Below are positions 4,883-63,085 of a DNA stretch of 64,000 bases, piece after piece. Numbering within the stretch: the stretch's first letter is position 1; every line of letters begins with the position of its first letter. This stretch comes from a virus: IMG/VR virus record IMGVR_UViG_3300045988_010351. The stretch is one strand, 5' to 3'. The position numbers were made by a program, and so were the translations under genes. A model generated the notes under the pieces. It ran no database searches and was not told where the DNA came from. It was given only the letters and a program-made list of their open reading frames with translations.

Positions 4883-7800
4883 CTAAAAGGCTATACATTT
4901 AACAGCTTGGTCTCTCTCTTCTTGGGAGATTGAATCAAACTTCTCTGCTGTCCAACCTTTCTTCAATAAATTCTCTTGCATAGAATCACTTAAAGTATTG
5001 AATGATGTAGTAGTTGAAGTAGTACCTCTCAATTCACTGATAGTAGGAACTTTGAATGTGCTATCTGCATATTTACCCTCATTAATTCTTCTGTAGTAGT
5101 CTATCAAGGAAGGTCTAAAGTTATTCCAGTTAGTAACCTTAGTAAAGAGTTCCTTGAAGAAATCAAGTATTCTCTTGCCTAAGCCTCTATTCTGTCTTGT
5201 CATTACATACTCTCTGAATCCCTCTGCCATGTCTTCCTCTAATGAGAGGTTATCTTTTTCACCATATAATTTCTTTGCTTCATCATATAGTGCTTGTCTT
5301 TCACCATTGTCAAGAAGGAGATTAAATACGGCATGGAAAGCTTCATGGTATGCAGTACCTTCAGCAGCTATGTCAGACAATGTGATTACACCTTTATCAA
5401 ATTGACCCCAAGCTAAAGTACCTCTTTTACCTACTTTGATAAGACCTTTTACTACTTTTACTCTATCTGGTTCACTTAATTGGGGAAGTACCCTACTTAA
5501 CCATTTAAGTTCTTTTTTCTCATCCCACTTTTCATAATCAAGTGATTTTACTTTTCTTAATTTATGTCTTGTTCTTGAGGCTTTCTTATTGTTTATTGCC
5601 TGTTCCTTTTGAACAGTATAAGCAGCACCTGTCTGGGTATTACCTTGATTAATAGTTGCAGGAGTTTCTACAGTAGTGATAGCATCATAATCTGACATAG
5701 AAAGTTGAGTAAATTTAATATCAAACCCTGCAAGAGCCTCATCTAACTTAGTAGTATTATTTCTCACATCCTCACTATGAAGTTTTTCTGCTTTTCCTGA
5801 CTCAAACAAATCTGTAAATTTCTTATTCAAGTTCTCATGTACAAACTCCCTTATAGTGTCAGGTGTCATGTTGAAATCCATAATAGTATCCTTGACTCCT
5901 TCAGGAGTTAATATAAGCATTCTCCATCTCTTTCTATCATTGTCCCACTCTATTTGAGCAGTATTATTATTGGGGGTTTTTACATATATAACAGGAATAA
6001 GATTTTCCGTATTATATAAATAACCAGTAACATTTTTACCCACCTTTGGTAAAGGCATTTTCTTAGTATTAACAGAGGCAGTACTTACAGTAGGTACTGT
6101 GTCAGGGTTAAACAATATAGTTTTTTCATTAGCCATGTCTTTAACCCTTTGTGGATTACCTCTAAGCATTTTGCTAATAGTTTGTTCAATCTGTACTTGA
6201 GAATATCCTCCTTGTACAGAGTTATTTCTTATTGCTAAGAATGTTTTACCATTAGGAAATACTGCATAGTAATTATTTGAAGCCACATGGGCTGCTTCTC
6301 CCTGTCTGCCAAATCCCTCTGTAATATTAGGAACTTTAGTAAGATATACTTCTACTCCATTAATTGTAGTAAGTGGTGTAACATATCCCTTATGTAATTT
6401 ACCATCTATTTCAAAGTAACCTACTTTATCTTTATCAGTAGATTTGTGTTCAGGTGTTAAGTCCTCAATAGGATTCTGTATCTCTAATGAAGTTTCAAAG
6501 ATAGGTAATACTGTCTGAGCTTGTGCTGGAGTAGCAGGAGCTTCTACAGGTTTATCTACTTTAACATTACCTACTAAAGGCACATTAACAGCAGGATTAT
6601 ATGTAATAGGAATACCCTTTTCACTTTGTACTGCTGATACCTTCTCCTTATCATAACTCAATACAAATGGCATTACAGCTAACTTAGTAACTGGTACACC
6701 ATACTGAGATTCAAATAGGTTCTTGTAAGCAGAAAGTTGTAAAGTATAGTAATCCTTTGTACTCATTCTTTGAGTAGCAGATGGATTATTAAAGTAGTTA
6801 ACCTTACGACCATATCTGTCTATAAAGTCATAGAAGCTGTATCTACTTGTCTTTACATCATAAATCTTAAAGTTACCTTCCTTATCAACAGAGAGAATAT
6901 CAACTTCACCTGCAACTCTTGTACCATCAGAATATTTCTGAAATAATACAATATTATCAGCAAGGAATCTTTCTCCCATTAACTCCATGTTTGACTTAAC
7001 ATTATTAAGAGTAGTAATCAAATCTATGAAAGCATTCTCTGACATATTGGATGGCTTCACTATCTTAGACACGTCTCTTATAGTAAAATACTGTCTGATG
7101 ATACTATCTACTGCTGAACCAGCATCAAGTGCCCTTTGTGAATTAGTACCAGACATCTTGTCTCTTACTATATTCACAATAGTATCTCTACTCTTGGCAT
7201 CAGTCTTACCTCTGTAAGCAGTCAAGTCTACCTTAAACTTGTTCTCCAAGTATTTCAGATAGTTCTCATACTGAGTAGGATTATCTACAAACTTGCTAAG
7301 ATTAAATCTTGCTGATTCAAGAGCACTTGTCTGCTTGTCAGATATTATCCAATTAGAGCCTAATCTGCTATGTACTCTACTGTACTGATGATATTCACCA
7401 TCATCTTCAAGTACATAATAGAACTCACCATCAGTTCTTGTCTTGTCTACTCTCTTTTGGTTCTCATATATTTCACTGATAACCTCCTTAGACTTGGCAA
7501 CTCTATCCTCTCTTTCCTTCTTTCTACCTGCAATAGTATCCTTTACATCTTGTGCCTCCTGGTCACTGAGATATACTTGCTTACTTCTGTCAAGTACCTT
7601 ACCATCAGGAGTAAGAACTTTGTTATCTACCATCATTGAAGAGTTAGCAGAATCCCCAAAGTTATCTTGTGCCCAAGCTAAATCAAATAATATTCTATTA
7701 TCATTAGTAATTGTTACACTTTTACCTTGGTCATCCCTAATAGTATTTGTCTTTAAGTCCACATAGTATGGCTTGTTTGAGAATACAGATGTTATCCTTG

Positions 7801-10800: not shown

Positions 10801-12787
10801 GTTCATCCTTTATATCTTGATACTCCTTTATTGTATTAAGAATGTCTTCCTTATTCTTGTTTATTTTGGAAGCCATCTCATTCATAGCTTCTTCAGTTCC
10901 AAAATTGGCTATTATATTGCCATTATCATCTTTAGAAGCATATTGGGAAAATGGTCCAATTAAATCACCCTTTTCATCCTTTGAGGTGGTATTAACCACT
11001 ATAGACTCTAAATCTTCTTGTGAAGTTCCTGATGCCTCATTTATAGCAGATTTTAAGTCTTCTATCTTCCCTGCTTGGTCAAACATTACAATATCAGATA
11101 CTAACTGAGCATGTTCTGCATTCTTAAAGTTGAACTCATCACCCTGTTCAGCAGCTTGATTCATATCATTCTGATACTTATTATGCCTGATAAGACCCTG
11201 ATAATAGTTTTTGAACTCTGGAGAGTTAACTCTATTATTCATGTAGTTAGCAATTTCATTCTCTCTTGCTATCTTATTCCTATAATCTCTCCACTTATTT
11301 ATGGCACCCTCTTCAATAGTAATAGGAGATTGTAGTGAACCTGACTCACTTCTAATTCCTCTAAACTTTGGCATACCTAAAGCACCTGTAAGAGCACCTA
11401 TGAAAAACTCTTCCCAAGATGAAGCATCATTTACTGTCTCATTAATTCCTTCAGCAAATGCTTTGGTCCAACTCAAAGTCTCTTGTGCAGCCTTTGGGTC
11501 AGTCTTTGACTTATAGAAATTATTTACATTAGTTTCATAATCAGTTTCATAATATTTTCCTGCTATAGTTGAAGCAGCTTTTTGAGAAATTTCTTCAGTA
11601 CCTTCAGATAATGCGCCCTTTGTTATCGCAGTAGCAGCACCTAATTTTGTAGTTCCAGCTTTGTATTCACCTGGCCTACCTAATATATTATAAGCTTTCC
11701 TAGATGTTTTGAATCCATTGGCATACAATTTACCAAACTGAATTATATTAGATGCAGTAAGGATAGGTATATTCATAAGTAAGTCCATATTACCCATCTT
11801 TAATCTATCTTCATTCAGTTTACCAAGAGCTGCATTATATAATTCTCTTTCTTTTGCAATAGCTTTTTGGTAATTTAAGTAAGCTGGGTCTACAAGCTGA
11901 GTACCATCTACACCACTTTTTATAAATTGTCTTCCTGCATTAGCATTATATTCAGCTTGTATTGCATTTAACCTTTCTCTTAGCTTGTCATCAAGCTGTG
12001 CTTTATGGAGTTCAAACCAGTCTTTACTATTATTAAGTGCTTCAATTCTACCCTCATTAACAGCAGAGGTAACTGAACCTAAGCCAGTTGCAACTATAGA
12101 AGATGCTTTACTTATGCCCTTTAGAGTTTTAATCCCAGCACCTAATCTCTTAGCACCAGCCATAGCTAATTTACCAAGACCTTTAACACCAGCAGCTTCT
12201 AAACTACCACTATAGAAAGCACCTACTGTGAAACCTAAGTTCTTGATAAACTTATCACCTAAGAAATTGGCAGTGAAGATATTTTCATACCAAGGTTGTT
12301 CTTGCTCTGCTTTTGTATAATAGTTAGGCAATGCTTGTTCAGACCACTCATTAAAAGACTGCATAGCCTTAGAGAAGTCATTATCCCAAAGACCAGACCA
12401 CCTATCTTCATTTATTGCAGTTCCTGCTCCAAATAATAATCCTATAGTACCATCAAGAAAAGTAGTACCTGCAAGTATAGCACCTTTAGCAAGACCTGCT
12501 CCTATTTGTGCATACCAAGGTTGGTTTTCAGCTCTTATATCTCCAAGATTTTGAAATTGTTCTTCAGTTGAAGTAGGCTCATCAAACATGCTCTCACCCC
12601 AAGGTGTAGTAGTCCCAGCTAAGGGACTACTAACCCTTTGAGGGGCTTGTCTATTTATATCATACTGTGATATAGTTTGAGGTCTTACACTTGCAAAAGG
12701 GTCATTGTTTGCATCTTGAAGCTGCCTAAAGGTCATTGGACCACTCTTAGTAATATCTATATCCTTTACTTTAGTTTCTTTTTCCAT
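4883..12787 (-). CDS. giant 2634-aa virion/ejection (cargo-type) protein; C-terminal region carries a zincin-like HExxH motif and a PD-(D/E)xK-like motif
   Basis: A 7.9 kb ORF that is the last gene of the minus-strand structural operon. It contains AYHEAFHAVF with Glu residues 14-22 aa downstream (gluzincin-like), and GEVDILSV...FKIYDVKT resembling a PD-(D/E)xK core. No DxDGD RNAP motif was found by eye. Confidence 0.7.
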   Translation of the reverse strand: MEKETKVKDIDITKSGPMTFRQLQDANNDPFASVRPQTISQYDINRQAPQRVSSPLAGTTTPWGESMFDEPTSTEEQFQNLGDIRAENQPWYAQIGAGLAKGAILAGTTFLDGTIGLLFGAGTAINEDRWSGLWDNDFSKAMQSFNEWSEQALPNYYTKAEQEQPWYENIFTANFLGDKFIKNLGFTVGAFYSGSLEAAGVKGLGKLAMAGAKRLGAGIKTLKGISKASSIVATGLGSVTSAVNEGRIEALNNSKDWFELHKAQLDDKLRERLNAIQAEYNANAGRQFIKSGVDGTQLVDPAYLNYQKAIAKERELYNAALGKLNEDRLKMGNMDLLMNIPILTASNIIQFGKLYANGFKTSRKAYNILGRPGEYKAGTTKLGAATAITKGALSEGTEEISQKAASTIAGKYYETDYETNVNNFYKSKTDPKAAQETLSWTKAFAEGINETVNDASSWEEFFIGALTGALGMPKFRGIRSESGSLQSPITIEEGAINKWRDYRNKIARENEIANYMNNRVNSPEFKNYYQGLIRHNKYQNDMNQAAEQGDEFNFKNAEHAQLVSDIVMFDQAGKIEDLKSAINEASGTSQEDLESIVVNTTSKDEKGDLIGPFSQYASKDDNGNIIANFGTEEAMNEMASKINKNKEDILNTIKEYQDIKDELILRTGQQLSDEQLEELTWMKSQIGNWAERATSMSGEVKSAIGNVIGNLDSLLRFNQQVRDFEGQHHADITERYKQADKNVKDIEGAINTLNMVRGQDDSVLAHTLATNPKFVDGLIKDINEVDETVLSADEKADITTKLNDIVKLGNASKTYNAKLKEYLENPQKQAEDHARADEQAVQQEIKKKSDDLKASLNAAQNLQEFRGIIDAQDDTENRDKVLKELEDGGSEMAKNYRETSQYNNEVRRVLNESDAEPQVKQDAMKLFQDQFNNSDSLEYLANPNSIYINNENAFDEDSEGDVELSATRFQEAQYALQNAMSKVNNDNRFKDRFSPEYKKPVEKRGGTVRGDDRTDTGDSGTATTPTVTSSGALPTVELPVGNITAEMVSEENKKANERVETPQRPSRDTSNQFYRPAIPELHIEASKEGDFRPFDVVVGEREKGVDFSGIYGYLRDSGAFRYLNEGNLKVGDELGFMIDPSFNDHTIFIIDKRNGQVVGSLDESDYSVSRYEGLKSLEEKIRREYASRTTTQASTSNINKNEPSTIEERIIIHSSLGGKGVGQVFGYNPNKQGTKNDRASNFWRTSPADPRTLGRKNSYIEHPDGTSTITYFSDKNNKVFDRNDGLGINIWRKLTPSESKQILDYLWEGKYTTPTDLAHFVDNVMHSDKSSAQSKGKFIATPTTRASKIMVGRVPYGNTERSLKDIPNVSSTDRKPVFGIIKNGVLTTNNKIDDSLIIKPVDMSQKEGRLYLLIPNGAGKYSPAAVRVKHFNSKEFNLSDSSVSSSPIGEDIKNAITKLSTATSQDDVSAAMQDLAQDLYMQDVMVTWFNSGTGNGVVISKKVRKPDGTYEKVIIEGKEQIKEDKYDVYFSNFGKSTVISGLEFALSEDVAKEANDDERFQRTIKNPEDIYNEILGHLIKFNLPLQVSTRRINEGAYNNRLINSNILTSNITEASVRSTWFTTDYFDNEGNLHQAISPASVAPQPKRKIETPVGGTEGAISGTRITSVFSNKPYYVDLKTNTIRDDQGKSVTITNDNRILFDLAWAQDNFGDSANSSMMVDNKVLTPDGKVLDRSKQVYLSDQEAQDVKDTIAGRKKEREDRVAKSKEVISEIYENQKRVDKTRTDGEFYYVLEDDGEYHQYSRVHSRLGSNWIISDKQTSALESARFNLSKFVDNPTQYENYLKYLENKFKVDLTAYRGKTDAKSRDTIVNIVRDKMSGTNSQRALDAGSAVDSIIRQYFTIRDVSKIVKPSNMSENAFIDLITTLNNVKSNMELMGERFLADNIVLFQKYSDGTRVAGEVDILSVDKEGNFKIYDVKTSRYSFYDFIDRYGRKVNYFNNPSATQRMSTKDYYTLQLSAYKNLFESQYGVPVTKLAVMPFVLSYDKEKVSAVQSEKGIPITYNPAVNVPLVGNVKVDKPVEAPATPAQAQTVLPIFETSLEIQNPIEDLTPEHKSTDKDKVGYFEIDGKLHKGYVTPLTTINGVEVYLTKVPNITEGFGRQGEAAHVASNNYYAVFPNGKTFLAIRNNSVQGGYSQVQIEQTISKMLRGNPQRVKDMANEKTILFNPDTVPTVSTASVNTKKMPLPKVGKNVTGYLYNTENLIPVIYVKTPNNNTAQIEWDNDRKRWRMLILTPEGVKDTIMDFNMTPDTIREFVHENLNKKFTDLFESGKAEKLHSEDVRNNTTKLDEALAGFDIKFTQLSMSDYDAITTVETPATINQGNTQTGAAYTVQKEQAINNKKASRTRHKLRKVKSLDYEKWDEKKELKWLSRVLPQLSEPDRVKVVKGLIKVGKRGTLAWGQFDKGVITLSDIAAEGTAYHEAFHAVFNLLLDNGERQALYDEAKKLYGEKDNLSLEEDMAEGFREYVMTRQNRGLGKRILDFFKELFTKVTNWNNFRPSLIDYYRRINEGKYADSTFKVPTISELRGTTSTTTSFNTLSDSMQENLLKKGWTAEKFDSISQEERDQAVKCIAF

Positions 12788-22401: not shown

Positions 22402-24944
22402 ATTCTTCTATCTCTTTGTTTTGGTTGTTTTGGTTGTCTTATCTGATTTATATAGTTTACATAATCAAAGAACCCAGGAGTATAATAAGACTCTTTCTGA
22501 CTTTCAGTATTAAATGCTAATGGAAGAGTTTCAATGTTGTCTTGTATTACTGGATTACTTTCTATAATAGGTTGAACTGCTGGAGTTATATCTAAAGGGG
22601 TAGCTAAAGGAGTAGTCTCTTGTACAGGAACATAAGCCCCAAGCATAGACCTTTCTTTCTTTCTTCTATTAGCTAATCCTCTATACTTCTTATCTCCAGA
22701 AGCCCACATAGTACCTTTAACATCTTCAATAGTTGCATTACCTTGTAGATACTTAGCTAATGTAGGAGCAGTTCTTGTCTTAAATCTTCCTGTTCCAACA
22801 TTATAAGCAAAACTATATAATCCATCTAATTGCTCTTGACTTAGTTTCTCTAAAGCACCTTCAGGGAGTACTTGATTAAACATAGTATCCATTCTATCAA
22901 AAGGAACATTAGTTCTCATAGTAGAGCCTTCCCAAGTAGATATTTGTTTTCTAATATTGCTTGATGACCTATATCTAGTTGCTTTTTTACCTCCATCAGC
23001 AAATAAATTACCACCTAATGCTTTTTGATTTCCTTCATAACGATTTACATAATCATAATTAAAATCATCAAATCTTCCAGCTCTATCTCTATACATCCAA
23101 CCTGTACCTAATTCATTTGGAATAAGTTCTGTATGATTACCATTTGGAGTAACTGTTATTTCAGGTAATTGATAAGCACCATCATACATAACTTTTGTTG
23201 CTCCTCTATTATAGTCTAAATCTGAACCTAAATAATCTAATACTCTATCTGTGTTTTCAGGTACAGCTTGTCTTGCAGACATATTAAATATTTTATCATT
23301 ATTAAGCCAAGAATTAGCGCCTAAATCAGGATAAGTAGCATGATTTGGTGTTTTATAAATACCACTTCTACCTTCATCATCAAAATGACCATGCCCTCCT
23401 TTTTCAATAGACTCTAGTTGCCTATAAGCTCTATCTGGATCATCATTATAATACTTTTGATAATCATAATTATCTTGACTTAAATCTTGATTACCCCATG
23501 CTTTAGATAATCTAGTAGAAAAATCTTTATATGATTTTTTAAGTGGTCCTCCCCCTTTCCTAATCCTTTTCCAATTATGTGCGGCATTTCTATCAAAAAT
23601 AGAAAAACTTTGTGGAAATTTTTCTAATGGATTACTATTAGGATATTCACCTACACTATAACCATGCGAAGATAAAAAGTCACTGACTTGCTTATTTACC
23701 CAAATATTATTATTATCAACATCCTCTATAGATAATGGGTATTTACTCCTAGCATTTACTTTTTTATCTATTCCAGCATTAACTATTTTTCTTAGGTCTT
23801 CTTTGAAAGCACTACTTTCATTTGGAAATATTAAATCTATAGCATCAACATTGTTATCTGTACCAAGACCAAATTTAAGTACTTTATATTTTCTAGTATA
23901 TTTACCAGGAACACCTTGTACATCTGAGCCAGTTAAAGGAGTAAATTTCAGTTTCTTTAGAGATTTAGGAGAATATGCAGCTTTCAAGTATCTCTCTGTT
24001 AATGGGCTATCAATTTTTAATAAACTCATAGGGTCTCCTTTGCCAATAGGAGTAAACATATTATATCCATTACTACCCCTATCAAAAAATTCAAAACTAG
24101 GTCTTTTAACATACCCTTTATAAATAACATTTCCGAAATTAGAATTATAATCAGGATAGGGAGATACATGTAATCCTGCATCATTTTTAGTAGCTACATT
24201 AAAATTAGCTATATCAAATGGTTCAGGAGAATGATGATATACCTTCATATATCTTGGGTCTAGTTCATATCTTAAATCTGAATTTAGTAGTCTTTGTCCA
24301 AGAACTTTACCTCCCTTTAATATATAATTAAAGGCCGCATCCCCCAAAGCACTTTCAAAAGCATTGTTTATAGAAGATAAAGGATAACGTGCTCCAAAAT
24401 TTAATTGTTGGTTTGCTATTACAGGATTATAATTAAAACTATTTTGATTCATTGTATATGGGGAACCCATAGCAGCATTTAGAGCCGCAACTTCAAAATA
24501 GTTTTGTTTATTTCTTTCGGCTTCTTCTTTAGAAACAGTAGGTCTATAACTATCATCATAAAATCCAGCTTGTGTTTTCTGCTGTAAGTTATCCTGTGCC
24601 ATCTGTTTCCATACCTCAGCCATTTCTGGATGCTCTTTCTTGAACCTGTTTAACCAAGTTCTTTTACCTGTTACTGTGGCTTCTGATAAACCAATTGCAG
24701 CATCACGGCCTACAATTTTACCATTACCATCTATTGCAAAACCTTCTCCTGTAGATTTGTCTACATGCAAACTAAGTTTAGGAAGAGTCTTATCAGAGCC
24801 TTTTAATTCTTCATTCCTAGTATCTCCTCCCATTGCAAATTTATTATATATCCCTCTAATAGTATCTAAATCAGTAATACCATTCTCAATTCCTAATTTT
24901 ATATAGGAGGCTCTATCTTTCATGGATAAATCATTCCAACTCAT
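22386..24944 (-). CDS. 852-aa tail-associated protein (hypothetical)
   Basis: Long ORF in the structural operon; no catalytic motif recognised by eye. Confidence 0.55.
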   Translation of the reverse strand: MSWNDLSMKDRASYIKLGIENGITDLDTIRGIYNKFAMGGDTRNEELKGSDKTLPKLSLHVDKSTGEGFAIDGNGKIVGRDAAIGLSEATVTGKRTWLNRFKKEHPEMAEVWKQMAQDNLQQKTQAGFYDDSYRPTVSKEEAERNKQNYFEVAALNAAMGSPYTMNQNSFNYNPVIANQQLNFGARYPLSSINNAFESALGDAAFNYILKGGKVLGQRLLNSDLRYELDPRYMKVYHHSPEPFDIANFNVATKNDAGLHVSPYPDYNSNFGNVIYKGYVKRPSFEFFDRGSNGYNMFTPIGKGDPMSLLKIDSPLTERYLKAAYSPKSLKKLKFTPLTGSDVQGVPGKYTRKYKVLKFGLGTDNNVDAIDLIFPNESSAFKEDLRKIVNAGIDKKVNARSKYPLSIEDVDNNNIWVNKQVSDFLSSHGYSVGEYPNSNPLEKFPQSFSIFDRNAAHNWKRIRKGGGPLKKSYKDFSTRLSKAWGNQDLSQDNYDYQKYYNDDPDRAYRQLESIEKGGHGHFDDEGRSGIYKTPNHATYPDLGANSWLNNDKIFNMSARQAVPENTDRVLDYLGSDLDYNRGATKVMYDGAYQLPEITVTPNGNHTELIPNELGTGWMYRDRAGRFDDFNYDYVNRYEGNQKALGGNLFADGGKKATRYRSSSNIRKQISTWEGSTMRTNVPFDRMDTMFNQVLPEGALEKLSQEQLDGLYSFAYNVGTGRFKTRTAPTLAKYLQGNATIEDVKGTMWASGDKKYRGLANRRKKERSMLGAYVPVQETTPLATPLDITPAVQPIIESNPVIQDNIETLPLAFNTESQKESYYTPGFFDYVNYINQIRQPKQPKQRDRRIWLTI

Positions 24945-39701: not shown

Positions 39702-40580
39702 TTATGAAATATGACTAACTAAATATTTCATACATTGATCATATTCTTCAATATATGTTTGTTTTTCTTCTTTAGTTACTTGTATTTTATTCATAGCTTT
39801 AAGATACTCAACAAATTGACCTAAACCAAATATTGTTTTATAAGGTTCTGGCTTATCTTTGAACCATTCAATTAATTCAGCACAACATAAAGCACAGAAT
39901 AAATTATGCTTCCATCTAGAAGAAACATGACAAAGAGAAGTATTTCTTTGTAAGTAATTATAGCCAGCTTCATTTACATAAGCTACTTTATTTGCATTAT
40001 AAAGAAGCTTCATTATAACAGGAGTATCTTCAACATATCTTCTATCACAATATTCAACTGTATCATACATAGTACTTCTTACAATCTTATTGTTCAAGAA
40101 AACCACTTTACCATCATTATAATCAGCAAACTTTTGAAATCCTTCACTTACAGTTGTACCAAAAGTGTTAGTTTCAAACTTATCAGTATCTTCATAACAA
40201 TAAGTAATTCCTCCTCCTACTATATCTGCATCAGTTTCTTTTTGTCTATCAACAAGATGTTCAATATAATCTTTATTAAGCCAATCATCAGCATCAAGTA
40301 ACATTATAAAATCACCAGTAGAAGCTTTAATACCATCTCTCCTTGATAATCCTGCACCAACATTTTCTTTATGTTGTACAAGATTAATAGGGAATGCTAA
40401 ATCAGATTTCTGTAAACCTTTAATGAATTTAAGTGTATTATCTGTTGAACAATCTTCTACTACAACAATTTCAATATTCTTATATGTTTGGTTTAATACT
40501 GAATTAATTGCTTTTTTAATATACTTCTCTACATTATATGCTGTAATTACAACACTTACTTTAATATTCTTCTCTTCCAT
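39702..40580 (-). CDS. family 2 glycosyltransferase (GT-A fold)
   Basis: VSVVITAYNVEKYIKKAINSVLNQTYKNIEIVVVEDCSTDNT followed by the LLDADDW DxD motif is a classic GT2 signature. Confidence 0.8.
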   Translation of the reverse strand: MEEKNIKVSVVITAYNVEKYIKKAINSVLNQTYKNIEIVVVEDCSTDNTLKFIKGLQKSDLAFPINLVQHKENVGAGLSRRDGIKASTGDFIMLLDADDWLNKDYIEHLVDRQKETDADIVGGGITYCYEDTDKFETNTFGTTVSEGFQKFADYNDGKVVFLNNKIVRSTMYDTVEYCDRRYVEDTPVIMKLLYNANKVAYVNEAGYNYLQRNTSLCHVSSRWKHNLFCALCCAELIEWFKDKPEPYKTIFGLGQFVEYLKAMNKIQVTKEEKQTYIEEYDQCMKYLVSHIS

Positions 40581-51839: not shown

Positions 51840-51843
51840 ATTG

Positions 51844-51929
51844 TAGCTTCAGTGGGATTTGAACCCACAAGAACATTACTGTTCAAAGGATTTTAAGTCC
51901 TCCGTGTCTACCATTTCCACCATGAAGCC
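51844..51929 (-). tRNA. tRNA-Leu: tRNA-Leu (TAA), type II
   Basis: Anticodon arm GAGGA-CTTAAAA-TCCTT, long variable hairpin GAAC-AGTAAT-GTTC, T-arm GTGGG-TTCAAAT-CCCAC. Confidence 0.6.
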
Positions 51930-53131: not shown

Positions 53132-53383
53132 TTATTTCTTTTCATATTTTTCAGACCATGCTTTAGTAATACCTGCTGTTGCAAATACTCCAGCAACAGC
53201 ACCTATATAAGCAGCAAGACCATTAAGGTCTGTCTGTATAGTATGGTTATAACATACTTCTATTATAAGAAGTACAGCAGGAACTAATAGCAGGATTAAA
53301 CCTATTAAAGTAACTGCCACTAAGAAGAAGTTCTTTGAAGAAACTCCTGTATTATTCTTTACAAGTTTATCTATGTAACACAT
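53132..53383 (-). CDS. ~83-aa small membrane protein (two TM helices), trimmed to Met13 of the listed ORF
   Basis: The first 12 codons of the listed ORF overlap the adjacent tRNA-like gene. Hydrophobic FFLVAVTLIGLILLLVPAVLLII and GAVAGVFATAGI segments. Confidence 0.4.
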   Translation of the reverse strand: MCYIDKLVKNNTGVSSKNFFLVAVTLIGLILLLVPAVLLIIEVCYNHTIQTDLNGLAAYIGAVAGVFATAGITKAWSEKYEKK

Positions 53384-53385
53384 AG

Positions 53386-53461
53386 TACTGGCAGAGGGGC
53401 TTGAACCCACATGCACCAATTACCCTTTCTACAATGTATAAGATTGAGGGGATATGCCAGT
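53386..53461 (-). tRNA. non-canonical tRNA-like element (perfect acceptor and T-arm; D and anticodon region aberrant; possible TAT anticodon)
   Basis: Perfect acceptor ACTGGCA/TGCCAGT with T-arm GTGGG-TTCAAGC-CCCTC. The internal 44 nt fold only as CAAT-CTTATAC-ATTG plus CCC/GGG, with no recognisable D-arm. Confidence 0.35.
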
Positions 53462-53468
53462 ATATTGG

Positions 53469-53540
53469 GGTGTCTGATGGGAATTGAACCCACACAATTT
53501 GGAGCCACAATCCAAAGCTCTACCATTAAGCTACAGACAC
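53469..53540 (-). tRNA. tRNA-His: tRNA-His (GTG), discriminator C73
   Basis: Perfect acceptor GTGTCTG/CAGACAC, D-arm GCTT-AATGGTA-GAGC, anticodon arm TTGGA-TTGTGGC-TCCAA. Confidence 0.65.
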
Positions 53541-53542
53541 AG

Positions 53543-53615
53543 TTCTGATGAGTAGACTCGAACTACTAACTACTGCCTTATGAGAGCAGCTTTCTGCCAT
53601 TGAAATACATCAGAA
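53543..53615 (-). tRNA. second CAT-anticodon tRNA (Met initiator/elongator or lysidine-Ile)
   Basis: Perfect acceptor TCTGATG/CATCAGA, anticodon loop CTCATAA, T-arm AGTAG-TTCGAGT-CTACT. Confidence 0.6.
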
Positions 53616-53619
53616 TATG

Positions 53620-53692
53620 TAGGGACAATAGGACTTGAACCTATAACTCCTTCCGTATCAGAGAAGTGCTCTAACCATTGAACTATATCCCT
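53620..53692 (-). tRNA. tRNA-Ile: tRNA-Ile (GAT)
   Basis: D-arm GTTC-AATGGTTA-GAGC, anticodon arm CTTCT-CTGATAC-GGAAG, T-arm ATAGG-TTCAAGT-CCTAT. Confidence 0.65.
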
Positions 53693-53698
53693 ATATTG

Positions 53699-53770
53699 CT
53701 GATGGGATAGGATTTGAACCCATATCAGCTGGTTTTGGAGACCAGTATTTTACCATTAAACTACCCATCA
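53699..53770 (-). tRNA. tRNA-Trp: tRNA-Trp (CCA)
   Basis: Perfect acceptor TGATGGG/CCCATCA, anticodon arm CTGGT-CTCCAAA-ACCAG. Confidence 0.6.
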
Positions 53771-53777
53771 ATTTCTG

Positions 53778-53851
53778 CGGGGAATACAGGACTCGAACCT
53801 GTAACCATTGGATTAACAGTCCACTGCTCTAACCATTAAAGCTAAATCCCC
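53778..53851 (-). tRNA. tRNA-Asn: tRNA-Asn (GTT)
   Basis: D-arm GCTT-TAATGGTTA-GAGC, anticodon loop CTGTTAA, T-arm ACAGG-TTCGAGT-CCTGT. Confidence 0.6.
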
Positions 53852-53854
53852 TAA

Positions 53855-53867
53855 TTTGTTGCTCCTA
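53855..53867. repeat. 13-bp direct repeat TTTGTTGCTCCTA (left copy) flanking the low-GC insertion
   Basis: Exact 13-mer repeated at 54881-54893; a chance 13-mer match in 64 kb is expected about 0.002 times. Confidence 0.6.
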
Positions 53868-53893
53868 ACCATCTGAGCTAAGAGTCCTAATAA
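53862..53893 (-). pseudogene. truncated tRNA (5' acceptor strand plus D-arm only), a remnant at an insertion junction
   Basis: GGACTCT-TA-GCTC-AGATGGTTAG-GAGC then runs directly into the 13-bp direct repeat and the next tRNA, with no anticodon or T-arm. Confidence 0.5.
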
Positions 53894-53922
53894 GTATTAT
53901 TCAAAACATTATAGTGACTTTA

Positions 53923-54825
53923 TTAATGTAAGCCATCTTTCAATATTGTTAATAATTTATTTTTTAATGAACTTTCTTGTTGAGAAATATAATCTATATT
54001 ATTATTGAATATATTTAGATTATTTATGTCCATTTCTTTTATATATTCATATTTTTCAAGAGCTTCTTTTTTAATAGTTTCTAAACTTTTTAGTTGATTG
54101 GTTTTATCATCTAAACAGTTTACAAAATACTTTTGATCAAATATAGTATTTATAAAATTATCACCACAATAAATAGGGATACATCCTGCTAAATAGCTGT
54201 CAAATATTTTTTCAGTAATGTAATATCTATGTTTTACATTCTCAAAACAAATATTAAACTTACTCTTTTCTATAAATGCTATTTTATCATTAATAATATT
54301 ATTAAAAGCATTACCTCCTTTTATTATATTGTTTGAAATATTATTACCAATTTCAATTCTCTTTTGTATTAAATTCAAATCATTTATACAATAATTTGGA
54401 GCATATAAAAAATTGAAATCATAATATTTATTTGATGTATTATTTGAAACAACTATTGAAAAATCATAATCTTTCTTATTCAAAATCTTATGCTTAAACT
54501 TTTCATTCAAATTCTCATAATTACCATCATTATAAATAGGAAGTAAACATTGAATATTTATAATTTTTCTATCATTTATATTAAATACTTTATCTGGTTG
54601 AAATGATATAAAAACATCAACATAATTGCTATAAACTTTAACTAGTGATTCAATATCTAAACATTCACCACATACAAAAATAACTAAATCTGATTTTTGT
54701 TTTCTTTTTTCCAAATTAAAAGAAACTAACTCAACAATATAATTCTGAGGTGTAATTTCTTCTAATATTTTATATAATGGTGAACTTGTGCTAAAATTAT
54801 CCCAAAGTCCATTTAGAATTATCAT
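53923..54825 (-). CDS. GT10-family (alpha-1,3-fucosyltransferase-like) glycosyltransferase, 300 aa, in a very low-GC insert
   Basis: FNICFENVKHRYYITEKIFDSYLAGCIPIYCG matches the FucT motif FxxxFENS(x)nY(V/I)TEK...IPIYxG. GC content is visibly far below the flanks. Confidence 0.6.
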   Translation of the reverse strand: MIILNGLWDNFSTSSPLYKILEEITPQNYIVELVSFNLEKRKQKSDLVIFVCGECLDIESLVKVYSNYVDVFISFQPDKVFNINDRKIINIQCLLPIYNDGNYENLNEKFKHKILNKKDYDFSIVVSNNTSNKYYDFNFLYAPNYCINDLNLIQKRIEIGNNISNNIIKGGNAFNNIINDKIAFIEKSKFNICFENVKHRYYITEKIFDSYLAGCIPIYCGDNFINTIFDQKYFVNCLDDKTNQLKSLETIKKEALEKYEYIKEMDINNLNIFNNNIDYISQQESSLKNKLLTILKDGLH

Positions 54826-54880
54826 ACTATGTATTTATTAGTACAGTTATACTAGCATCAGGGAATATAAGGAATCAAAT

Positions 54881-54893
54881 TTTGTTGCTCCTA
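54881..54893. repeat. 13-bp direct repeat TTTGTTGCTCCTA (right copy, overlapping the 3' end of tRNA-Val)
   Basis: See the left copy. Confidence 0.6.
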
Positions 54894-54958
54894 CAAGACT
54901 CGAACTTGTGACCTTTGGTGTGTAAAACCACTGTTCTTAACCACTGAACTAAGGAGCA
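54885..54958 (-). tRNA. tRNA-Val: tRNA-Val (TAC)
   Basis: Perfect acceptor TGCTCCT/AGGAGCA, D-arm GTTC-AGTGGTTAA-GAAC, anticodon loop TTTACAC, T-arm CAAG-TTCGAGT-CTTG. Confidence 0.55.
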
Positions 54959-55046
54959 TTGATAGGGCAGTTTCTTTAACCTCTAACTGCCCAAAAGAGG
55001 GTTCAAGCAAAAAGCTCAACATTATGAAAACATGAAAACATAGTGT

Positions 55047-55119
55047 GGAGCAAGAGGGACTCGAACCCTTAATTCTTCCTTGCAAAGGAAGTATGTTAGC
55101 CAATTACATCACTTGTCCC
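55047..55119 (-). tRNA. tRNA-Ala: tRNA-Ala (TGC)
   Basis: D-arm ATGT-AATTGGCTA-ACAT, anticodon arm CTTCC-TTTGCAA-GGAAG; the acceptor has one mismatch. Confidence 0.55.
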
Positions 55120-55246
55120 AAATGAGGGTATAGGCTATCAACCCTCTTGTAGGCAGTCACCATTCATTCCCTACTTTATATACCCTAAAGGTGGTATCAC
55201 CTACCCTCTTGTACTGGGGTGAGCATCTTATATTTCTATAAGAACG

Positions 55247-55322
55247 TAGAGTAGACAAGACTCGAACTTGCAATATCACTGCATCCCAAATGCAGGGGGC
55301 TAACCAATTAGCCTACTACTCT
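55247..55322 (-). tRNA. tRNA-Pro: tRNA-Pro (TGG)
   Basis: Perfect acceptor AGAGTAG/CTACTCT, D-arm GGCT-AATTGGTT-AGCC, anticodon arm CTGCA-TTTGGGA-TGCAG. Confidence 0.6.
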
Positions 55323-55328
55323 ATATTG

Positions 55329-55414
55329 CGGAGAGCAATGTACTCGAAACATATACAATTACTTGTACACTTTGCTTAGCAGGCAAGCCCCATAACCTTA
55401 TGGGTTTACTCTCC
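55329..55414 (-). tRNA. tRNA-Ser: tRNA-Ser (GCT), type II
   Basis: Acceptor GGAGAGT/GCTCTCC, anticodon arm CTTGC-CTGCTAA-GCAAG, variable hairpin TACAA-GTAAT-TTGTA; 86 nt. Confidence 0.6.
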
Positions 55415-55450
55415 AATTTGCCTACCCTACCATATAGGAATAGGACTTTT

Positions 55451-55534
55451 AGTTGGGTAGCAGACTATGAGGGAATTGAACCCATAATCTCCACATTGAA
55501 AGTGTGGTGACTTAACCACTTCGTCTAACCCAAC
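55451..55534 (-). tRNA. non-canonical 84-nt tRNA-like element (anticodon arm CCACA-CTTTCAA-TGTGG suggests TTC/Glu; extended T-arm plus 7 extra nt before the acceptor)
   Basis: Perfect acceptor GTTGGGT/ACCCAAC and a perfect anticodon arm. The T region forms a 10-bp arm (AGATTATGGG...CCC-TC-ATAGTCT) that does not fit a cloverleaf. Confidence 0.35.
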
Positions 55535-62759: not shown

Positions 62760-63012
62760 ATAAGGACTTGGGATATTAATCCCTAACCTTATTGAATACA
62801 TATAGTAAGTATCTGTTAAAATATACATAATGGCTAATAAAATGTAATATAATATCTAATGCTTAACCGTTAGATAGTCTGTTATTCCAAAATAACCAAC
62901 CCTATGAAGTCTGACTGATGGAGGGATGTTCTTGTTCTTGGTGGTTTAACAGGTTCTTGCTATTGATATTGGCTTTGTGTTAGTAGGTATTTACTATATG
63001 TAACTTGTCTTT

Positions 63013-63085
63013 GTATCTTGGTGTAATTGGTAGCACACTGACTGTTAGGTTGGAGGTTAGGTTCGAGTCCTAAGATACACCAATT
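63013..63085 (+). tRNA. tRNA-like gene with canonical D- and T-arms but an unresolved anticodon arm
   Basis: Acceptor TGTATCT/AGATACA, D-arm GTGT-AATTGGTAGC-ACAC, T-arm TTAGG-TTCGAGT-CCTAA; no 5-7-5 anticodon stem-loop found by eye. Confidence 0.35.

Follow-up and report, generated by a model that had tools for sequence, protein, structure and literature searches.

The window analysed here, a 64,000-nt stretch of viral DNA (IMG/VR virus record IMGVR_UViG_3300045988_010351), carries within an array of transfer RNA (tRNA) genes an open reading frame (ORF) for a predicted glycosyltransferase of family GT10 (53923..54825, minus strand, 300 amino acids (aa), ATG start). In our assessment this gene most likely belongs to a foreign patch of tRNA-array sequence, which was joined to the resident array by way of tRNA sequence that the two partners had in common. 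The foreign origin of the patch, its empty site, the donor-type context, the anatomy of the junctions, the family membership of the protein and the selective constraint on the gene are matters of observation.

The base composition of the ORF sets it apart from its surroundings. With 20.2% guanine plus cytosine (GC) it lies ~5 standard deviations below other 903-bp segments of the window (mean 34.7% +/- 2.9%, minimum 25.4%); GC varies between 18% and 21% across the ORF, against 33-42% in both flanks and 35% in the window as a whole, and falls to 11% at third codon positions (GC3) within a 35%-GC genome. ARAGORN places 20 tRNA genes on the strand of the ORF between 51607 and 55701. Two of these bracket the ORF: an intact tRNA-Val(UAC) upstream (54884..54958, minus; 66 bits with the Rfam tRNA model) and the resident tRNA-Asn(GUU) downstream (53777..53851, minus), which in related phages follows tRNA-Val at a distance of 4-10 nt. 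Within the segment between them (53868-54880) there is no other ORF of at least 40 aa.

The segment is flanked by a direct repeat of 13 bp, TTTGTTGCTCCTA, exact at 53855-53867 and 54881-54893. The right copy consists of the last 10 nt of tRNA-Val and three nucleotides of spacer; the left copy represents nucleotides 21-33 of a donor tRNA-Met, merging with the 3' end of the resident tRNA-Val and its AAA spacer. A 55-nt spacer of donor origin (54826..54880, minus) separates tRNA-Val from the start codon, and the spacer after the stop codon (53888..53922, minus), in which 53890-53910 match the donor spacer GTTTTGAATAATACTTATTA, leads into a dead 5' fragment of tRNA-Met(CAU) covering nucleotides 1-33 (53855..53887, minus). 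This stump runs from the 5' strand of the acceptor stem through the D-arm to the 5' strand of the anticodon stem and ends with the 13 nt of the left repeat copy. Neither ARAGORN nor Rfam calls it a tRNA, and the Rfam scan of the window and the donor loci returned tRNAs only. That the 13-mer might be a common tRNA motif was considered and rejected: the window holds only two exact copies, and the single copy with one mismatch, at 23194, lies inside a coding region (0.18 expected by chance at up to one mismatch).

An earlier note on this DNA had described the ORF with its GT10 signature, the AT-rich composition, the exact 13-bp repeat at these positions and the identity of its right copy with the 3' end of tRNA-Val, and these descriptions hold, the low GC standing out against the rest of the window when segments of equal length are compared. 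It had also noted a tRNA remnant at the left junction; the fragment is real, and its coordinates are 53855-53887 on the minus strand instead of 53862-53893.

The recipient genome and its empty site

The closest deposited phages are crAss-like, namely Kahnovirus cr85_1 (Steigviridae), cr128_1 and a rodent-faeces virus, and Pfam recognizes crAss tail-hub and ring proteins at 25.5-27.3 kb. Judged from its sequence, the window belongs to a crAss-like (Steigviridae-like) gut phage of ~100 kb. The order of the tRNA array in cr85_1 is that of the window, with tRNA-Asn and tRNA-Val lying 4 nt apart. Through the Dps-like gene inside the array (76-99% aa identity) we gathered 80 relatives from IMG/VR, none of which carries the GT10 gene by tblastn. 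Of the 52 relatives with a tRNA at most 15 nt upstream of tRNA-Asn, 51 have Val or a tRNA derived from it there, which ends in TAGGAGCAAC and is followed by an A/T spacer of 4-10 nt; this adjacency spans several sub-lineages with differing spacers.

The closest empty site, located in metagenome contigs through the body of tRNA-Val, is that of L220 (ERZ1026898, GC 35.4%), where a tRNA-Val identical to that of the window is followed by AAATTA and tRNA-Asn, with no GT10 gene. The two sequences are 99.6% identical from 53867 to 53382 (486 nt) and 92.2% identical from 55112 to 54881, the overlap of the two alignments being the 13-mer; relative to L220, the window has an extra 13-mer and 1,013 bp (53868-54880), or 1,026 bp. 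In IMG/VR, neither the predicted junction of the empty site nor either junction of the insert was matched, and a first metagenome scan for the junction between spacer and tRNA-Met was likewise negative.

The exact empty site in this related phage, the absence of the gene from the 80 relatives, the donor-type arrays and the tRNA-Met remnant bear out the earlier proposal that a cargo gene was gained horizontally by recombination at a tRNA. The same proposal called the acquisition recent, which applies in a relative sense only: the carriers diverge from one another by at most 1.4%, but the nearest sampled donor gene stands at ~0.25 synonymous substitutions per synonymous site (dS).

Donor-type phages and the anatomy of the junctions

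The GT10 gene occurs in three phage backgrounds. The first is the lineage of the window itself, in which seven assemblies from different samples and assemblers have both junctions in identical form; these carriers, on contigs of up to ~100 kb, constitute a single tight clade. The second comprises L042 and L043, with a GC content of 26-28%. L042 is Steigviridae-like (its TerL region is 72% identical to that of cr116_1 at the nucleotide level) and collinear with the window throughout the stretch between array and terminase; the terminase regions of the two share only ~66% nucleotide identity, against 90.7% for the GT10 gene. The third background consists of large phages (L003, L040, L041, L044, L126-L130 and L136; contigs of 123-175 kb, GC ~26-27%), in which the gene resides in tRNA-rich DNA upstream of a conserved block of glucosaminidase, Peptidase_C26 and COOH-NH2-ligase genes, and one of which, L126, has a 52%-identical ortholog at the syntenic place. 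Copies in L040, L136, L042, L041, L043 and L003 are 87-92% identical to that of the window at the nucleotide level, and the GC content of the gene (17.5-20%) lies below that of the carrier in every background.

The sequences suggest that the large phages are the long-term reservoir of the gene. Codon 154 of the L040 copy (6001-6894) is TAG where the window has CAA, the L126 copy (5001-5924) has TAG at codon 7, and an HNH-like ORF adjoining the gene in L136 (5312-5938) contains five in-frame TAGs. The gene caller rendered the in-frame TAGs of the large phages as Q, and the homologs have Gln; the copy in the window is free of in-frame TAG. We read this pattern as a sign that the reservoir lineage has reassigned TAG to Gln. 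The two 97.3%-identical phages L136 and L222 differ by exactly the GT10 gene (L136 5987-6914; L222, reverse strand, ~12383-12399), which by sequence comparison is a presence/absence polymorphism in the likely reservoir as well.

The insert can be aligned piece by piece with the donor-type arrays. L042 has the order tRNA-Glu, spacer, tRNA-Arg, GT10 gene, 45-aa ORF, tRNA-Lys and tRNA-Met, and L136 the order tRNA-Arg, HNH-like ORF, GT10 gene, 45-aa ORF and tRNA-Met. Reading along the minus strand, 54883 to 54845 of the window correspond to the spacer after tRNA-Glu in L042 (87%), and 54845 to 54826 to the leader that immediately precedes the gene in L042, L043 and L136; in the donors a tRNA-Arg separates these two pieces, and the window lacks it. 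The match to the donor gene, including the 20-nt leader, extends from 54845 to 53934, and 53906 to 53868 match the donor spacer before tRNA-Lys. The sequence GTTTTGAATAATACTTATTA directly precedes tRNA-Lys in L042 and L136 and tRNA-Met in L222, where its direct junction with an intact tRNA-Met gives a 56-nt match of 96.4% to the window. From 53889 to 53855, across the first 33 nt of tRNA-Met, 34 of 35 positions agree with L042 and L136. The intact form of this tRNA-Met is found in donor lineages only, and the truncated tRNA, to judge from these matches, came with the insert and is not a broken resident gene.

In the donor tRNA-Met, GGACTCTTAGCTCAGATGGT-TAGtAGCAACAAA continues with CTCATAA...; in the window, GGACTCTTAGCTCAGATGGT-TAGGAGCAACAAA continues with TTAGGGG, which belongs to tRNA-Asn. 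Over the left 13-mer, 12 of 13 positions agree between the interior of the donor tRNA-Met and the terminal part of the resident tRNA-Val with its spacer, and it is there that donor sequence gives way to recipient sequence. On the upstream side, the tRNA-Val of the window is 98.7% identical to that of L136 and 97.5% to that of L222, so that homology could extend over as much as 75 nt; at the one position that differs, in the T-loop, the window and L220 have G whereas L136 and L222 have A. With a donor of the L136/L222 type, the upstream switch would fall within the last ~17 nt of tRNA-Val. Painting of the region 53300-55500 by origin yields recipient-family matches up to 53867 and again from 54881, and donor-type matches over 53855-54960. 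Since the left repeat copy runs on without a break into donor tRNA-Met sequence, we rejected a target-site duplication or a core of an attachment (att) site and read the 13-bp repeat as microhomology used for the join, not as an att site, an integration core or a transposition footprint. We also considered whether the tRNA-Val of the window was itself imported from a donor, given that it is at most 91% identical to those of the 80 IMG/VR relatives. This was rejected because L220 and L221 carry the same variant beside tRNA-Asn, which makes it a stretch of shared homology.

Several features of these arrays deserve separate mention. The acceptor part of the tRNA-Met stump (53881-53887) reads GGACTCT, GAACTGT or GAACAGT among seven genomes of 98.6-100% identity (window, L038/L039, L132); the variant of L038 equals the 5' end of the donor tRNA-Lys, which suggests, at the sequence level, that Lys and Met were fused or that donor phages converted the site repeatedly. 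The 45-aa ORF (...HGYKIVFIEDGINLDELIRFTKE(L/M)FIKK) lies downstream of the GT10 gene in L042 (4705-4842) and L136 (6890-7027) and upstream of it in L040 (~5772-5905) and L041 (~1026-1160), and is absent from the window. Behind the HNH-like ORF, L136 and L222 have a 3' stump of tRNA-Arg, just upstream of the site of the gene. Next to the gene in low-GC phages, tRNA-Leu(UAA) is split at the anticodon region by an insertion of 530-670 nt (halves at 6895-6934 and 7463-7517 in L040, 2152-2191 and 2804-2857 in L041, 5529-5567 and 6240-6290 in L043, and ~7280-7316 and 7869-7920 in L136), which in L043 holds an HNH_3-like ORF. The arrangement resembles an intron, and Rfam detects no group I intron in it at the gathering score; the tRNA-Leu(UAA) of the window (51843-51929) is uninterrupted. 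Inside the split gene of L040, downstream of the GT10 gene, a non-coding stretch of 289 nt (7081-7369) is 89% identical to an unannotated region of the crAss-like phage cr116_1 and ~82% identical to Prevotella Lak megaphages.

The arrays of the 80 relatives (L046-L125) differ by many gains, losses and swaps of tRNA genes. In ~10 of these relatives ARAGORN reports Cys(ACA) or an undetermined two-base anticodon for the gene in the Val position; these genes contain TTACAA, which is compatible with a UAC anticodon, and a calling artefact is possible. A suppressor tRNA with anticodon TTA is predicted in L121. Between tRNA-His and a small membrane ORF (53382/53384), L038 and L220 have a tRNA-Cys that is missing from the window; missing too are the tRNA-Glu(CTC) and tRNA-Asp found in L038, L132 and L220 (55330-55470). 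The membrane ORF encodes a small predicted membrane protein without family match (~83-95 aa; window 53132-53419, minus) and has counterparts of 72-74% nucleotide identity in the low-GC Steigviridae-like phages (L042 5047-5313, L043 4944-5192), in which it stands directly after tRNA-Met. Over 83 nt (53381-53463) the window shows 85-91% identity to the large low-GC phages. ARAGORN also reports a tRNA-like gene with an undetermined two-base anticodon at 63012-63081 on the plus strand, which is absent from the Rfam matches at the gathering score.

The GT10 protein and its predicted role

The Pfam family PF00852, the C-terminal domain of GT10 enzymes, matches residues 180-255 with 33.4 bits (curated cut-off 23.9, E 4.6e-8), which supports the family assignment of the earlier note; the homologs are likewise all annotated with PF00852. 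Residues 190-221 make up the donor-binding motif FNICFENVKHRYYITEKIFDSYLAGCIPIYCG, in which F190, E195, N196, Y202, K206, P217 and G221 are invariant and E205 is nearly so in an alignment of 22 sequences. The motif follows the GT10 pattern F-x-x-x-F-E-N ... Y-x-T-E-K ... P-I/V-Y-x-G and aligns with that of the Helicobacter pylori alpha1,3-fucosyltransferase (FucT) structure 2nzw, which is also the best match of the close-family profile (E 3e-21), ahead of human FUT9 and plant FUT11. An hhalign comparison with an H. pylori FucT sequence gives 99.1% probability over 236 columns. The AlphaFold2 model, built from the 22 sequences, has a mean predicted local distance difference test score (pLDDT) of 69.7 and a predicted template-modelling score (pTM) of 0.71, and its two-domain GT-B fold superposes on solved GT10 structures: the ten best Foldseek matches in the PDB are all of this family, the first seven being H. 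pylori FucT (best E 3.8e-9, TM 0.53), followed by Arabidopsis FUT11 and human FUT9. On the viral side, giant viruses and cyanophage S-SKS1 supply GT10-like proteins as fold matches. By sequence and modelled fold, the protein is a member of GT10.

H. pylori FucT/FutA (PDB 2NZW, 2NZX, 2NZY, 5ZOI), the best match in both profile and full-length fold, shares with the phage protein the donor-binding motif FxxCFEN...YxTEK...IPIYxG. Overall identity is, however, ~20%; the phage protein, with its 300 aa, has neither the C-terminal heptad repeats nor the membrane-anchoring tail, its acceptor domain is much reduced, and it is encoded by lytic-type phages instead of a bacterium. In the N-terminal domain, E54 (VCGEC) is invariant in the close family; by way of P0010 and the hhalign profile it falls opposite the TGE glutamate of the H. 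pylori FucT sequence, the N-terminal catalytic base of the H. pylori enzyme being E95. No usable match was obtained in PHROGs or NCBIfam. Among 185,579 species genomes the closest cellular relatives are Helicobacter-type GT10 genes with 29-57% identity over partial lengths, and a search of 5.8 billion proteins revealed no closer bacterial source, homologs of 80-99% aa identity being confined to phage-like contigs.

By analogy with known GT10 enzymes, the protein should be a compact inverting GT-B glycosyltransferase that takes GDP-beta-L-fucose as donor and leaves an alpha-fucoside, L-fucose being transferred in alpha1,3 or alpha1,4 linkage to a glycan acceptor; the sugar, the linkage and the target are inferences. 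The ratio of non-synonymous to synonymous substitution rates (dN/dS) between backgrounds is 0.16-0.34, a sign of purifying selection which indicates that the protein has been kept functional; within the window lineage there are 2 synonymous and 3 non-synonymous changes.

The window encodes another glycosyltransferase, a polysaccharide-type enzyme of family GT2 (39702-40580, minus, 292 aa; Pfam PF00535, E 1.4e-38, with the DxD motif LLDADD), which lies in its second marked low-GC island (~25-26% GC) and on the same contigs as the GT10 gene. The best match in deposited phages is a 'GtrB-like O-antigen conversion' gene of cr130_1 (35% identity), and a 94%-identical homolog is present in a single IMG/VR contig (L217). 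A glycan-building role is plausible because the phage carries two accessory glycosyltransferases. The roles put forward in the earlier note, remodelling of capsule, LPS or receptors or decoration of the virion, are speculative. As the target we favour a glycan of the host envelope, which would be modified during infection, with virion proteins as the alternative.

Proposed mechanism, alternatives and significance

What could have brought a single gene from one tRNA array into another? We envisage that a patch of 1,026 bp was copied from the array of a low-GC (~26%) gut phage into the crAss-like array, most likely during co-infection, and that the insert represents a compacted fragment of the array of the low-GC phages. 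Upstream, the homology would likely have been offered by the near-identical tRNA-Val of donor and recipient; downstream, by a chance resemblance of nucleotides 21-33 of the donor tRNA-Met to the last 10 nt of tRNA-Val and three nucleotides of spacer. Both incoming ends could then have paired with one short recipient sequence, the 3' end of tRNA-Val, and it is this homology of the ends that would account for a clean insertion, a 13-bp duplication and an intact tRNA-Val. The patch would have delivered one gene and one dead tRNA-Met stump. Candidate routes are two template switches during replication in a co-infected cell (copy-choice), ends-in recombination of a linear fragment, or a circle, which would be excised between the donor's own two 13-mer-like repeats and then re-inserted. 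The array region is unstable, as witnessed by the tRNA turnover in relatives, the polymorphism of the GT10 gene and the shifting position of the 45-aa ORF, and in donor-type arrays HNH-like ORFs, tRNA stumps and split tRNA-Leu genes occur near the GT10 gene. Conjecturally, breaks made by endonucleases may drive this turnover.

The exact 13-bp repeats at both ends, one including a tRNA 3' end, and the intact tRNA recall islands that target tRNA genes, and the gene is polymorphic for presence in other phages (L136 versus L222). It is nevertheless very unlikely that the segment is a mobile or integrative element directed to the 3' end of tRNA-Val, with the 13-mer as its att core or target-site duplication. 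There is neither a recombinase nor a constant pair of ends: the GT10 gene is the only ORF of at least 40 aa in the insert, and in L003, L040, L041, L042, L043 and L136 the flanks are different and lack such a repeat. In these other contexts similarity sets in 4-20 nt ahead of the ATG and breaks off ~20 nt short of the stop codon, being limited to the gene itself, plus adjacent array sequence in L042, L043 and L136. Moreover, pre-existing homology explains the repeat, since its left copy is contiguous with the interior of the donor tRNA-Met and 12/13 identical to it. We consider it just as improbable that the gene is ancestral and was lost from the relatives by deletion between the repeats. Recombination between the 13-mers would recreate the L220 sequence exactly, yet such a history would have to accommodate the absence of the gene from all 80 relatives, the Val-Asn adjacency in several sub-lineages, a GC3 of 11% in a 35%-GC genome, nucleotide identities of 90-92% to phages whose other genes are far more divergent, a tRNA-Met fragment that is intact only in donor lineages, and carriers that form one tight clade of at most 1.4% divergence. 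Both junctions lie in tRNA-like repeats, classic sites of mis-assembly; that they are chimeras joining two phages in the course of metagenome assembly is hardly conceivable, however, with identical junctions in seven assemblies from different samples and assemblers and the gene on complete contigs of ~100 kb. Much less remote, although still the minority view, is the possibility that the protein has the GT10 fold without being an alpha1,3/4-fucosyltransferase of host surface glycans, and that it transfers another sugar, acts on virion proteins or is a near-neutral passenger. A confident alignment is obtained for the C-terminal nucleotide-sugar domain only, the model of the short acceptor domain is poor, PHROGs and NCBIfam give no match, and the nearest cellular relatives share just 29-57% identity over partial lengths. 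On the other hand, the GDP-fucose-binding residues N196, Y202, E205 and K206 are invariant or nearly so in the family alignment, and the dN/dS values, obtained across four phage backgrounds, speak against a neutral passenger.

Several observations also weigh against the transfer of a patch from a low-GC array as we describe it. The compact order of tRNA-Val, short spacer, GT10 gene, spacer and tRNA-Met is present in no sampled donor, and to derive the insert from L136 or L042, as their sequences stand, would need additional deletions of tRNA-Leu/Thr/Glu, tRNA-Arg, the 45-aa ORF and tRNA-Lys. The nearest donor genes are separated from that of the window by a dS of 0.24-0.28, and the direct donor thus lies outside the sampled set. 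The sampled donor tRNA-Met genes differ from the window at position 4 of the 13-mer (T in the donors, G in the window), and L220 could in principle be a precise deletion between 13-mers instead of the ancestral state. Matches to sigma-70-type promoters (14 versus 11.1 +/- 3.6 in shuffled sequence) are not above chance with a tool that covers neither Bacteroidota-type promoters nor those of phage RNA polymerases, and the same scan located no terminator after the gene. As to the protein, the structural model is of moderate quality only, with an unreliable linker at residues 119-176 (pLDDT <50), and E54 is placed tentatively as the candidate catalytic base of the N-domain, the window's own row in alignment A2 being gapped near this residue and the alignment there uncertain.

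Transfer by short shared tRNA sequence has parallels in several known systems. Phage morons, and phage mosaicism generally, are attributed in the lambdoid/HK97 model to illegitimate or short-homology recombination. Like a moron, the GT10 gene is a single accessory gene of deviant composition (5 standard deviations below the mean GC), set between conserved neighbours with short-match junctions, restricted to one lineage and absent from its close relatives, with an empty site in L220 and no occurrence among the 80 phages. It differs from morons in that the homology derives from the tRNA arrays of two phages, that a tRNA stump travelled along, and that no promoter or terminator of its own was detected in the sigma-70-type scan. 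The insertion behaves as a classical phage moron gained by short-homology recombination. Prophages and genomic islands targeting tRNA genes have their att core at the tRNA 3' end, and the direct repeat that includes a tRNA 3' end while leaving the tRNA intact is common to both cases; here, by contrast, an integrase is lacking, the insertion is into a phage genome instead of a chromosome, and the interior of an unrelated donor tRNA is the source of the second repeat copy. Homing endonucleases drive exchange in phage tRNA regions, SegB of T4 being an example. The donor-type arrays, hypervariable and with HNH-like ORFs and a split tRNA-Leu by the GT10 gene, are similar in this respect, whereas the insert in the window and its neighbourhood are devoid of an endonuclease gene.

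Other phages also carry glycan-modifying genes with the potential to change surface glycans, among them the seroconverting gtr/O-antigen glycosyltransferases, the enzymes of mycobacteriophage virion glycosylation and futC. For fucosyltransferases of gut prophages (futC, a GT11 alpha1,2-fucosyltransferase) activity has been shown (PMC12748750). The present enzyme differs from these in belonging to GT10, not to GT2 or GT11, and in being carried by a crAss-like phage of virulent type. No GT10 homolog was found among the crAss-like genomes in deposited phage records, and our literature search yielded no paper on a fucosyltransferase encoded by a crAss-like phage.

The gene transfer described here is a clear yet not unprecedented case of accessory-gene swapping between phages. 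It resolves, to the base pair, the passage of a gene between lineages of uncultured gut phages, with the empty site, the donor-type contexts and both junctions in hand and with tRNA genes as the portable source of homology, and it extends the accessory gene set known from crAss-like phages by a GT10 fucosyltransferase-like enzyme. Its interest resides in the tRNA-mediated junctions, in the passage of a gene from TAG-recoded to standard-code phages and in a possible two-enzyme glycan pathway. Bacteroidales fucosylate their surface glycans heavily, and a phage fucosyltransferase could thus alter receptors or virion surfaces. In a wider and distinctly speculative view, which we rate as unlikely, the tRNA arrays of gut phages would act as a shared landing platform for cargo cassettes, the conservation of tRNA sequences across otherwise unrelated phages letting a small cassette cross lineages. 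The GT10 gene would then have travelled from the large low-GC phages reading TAG as Gln to the low-GC Steigviridae-like phages and from these to a standard-code crAss-like phage, where its product and the resident GT2 enzyme might together produce a Lewis-like, fucosylated epitope on infected cells or virions. If true, such an epitope could affect superinfection or interactions with gut mucus and the immune system.

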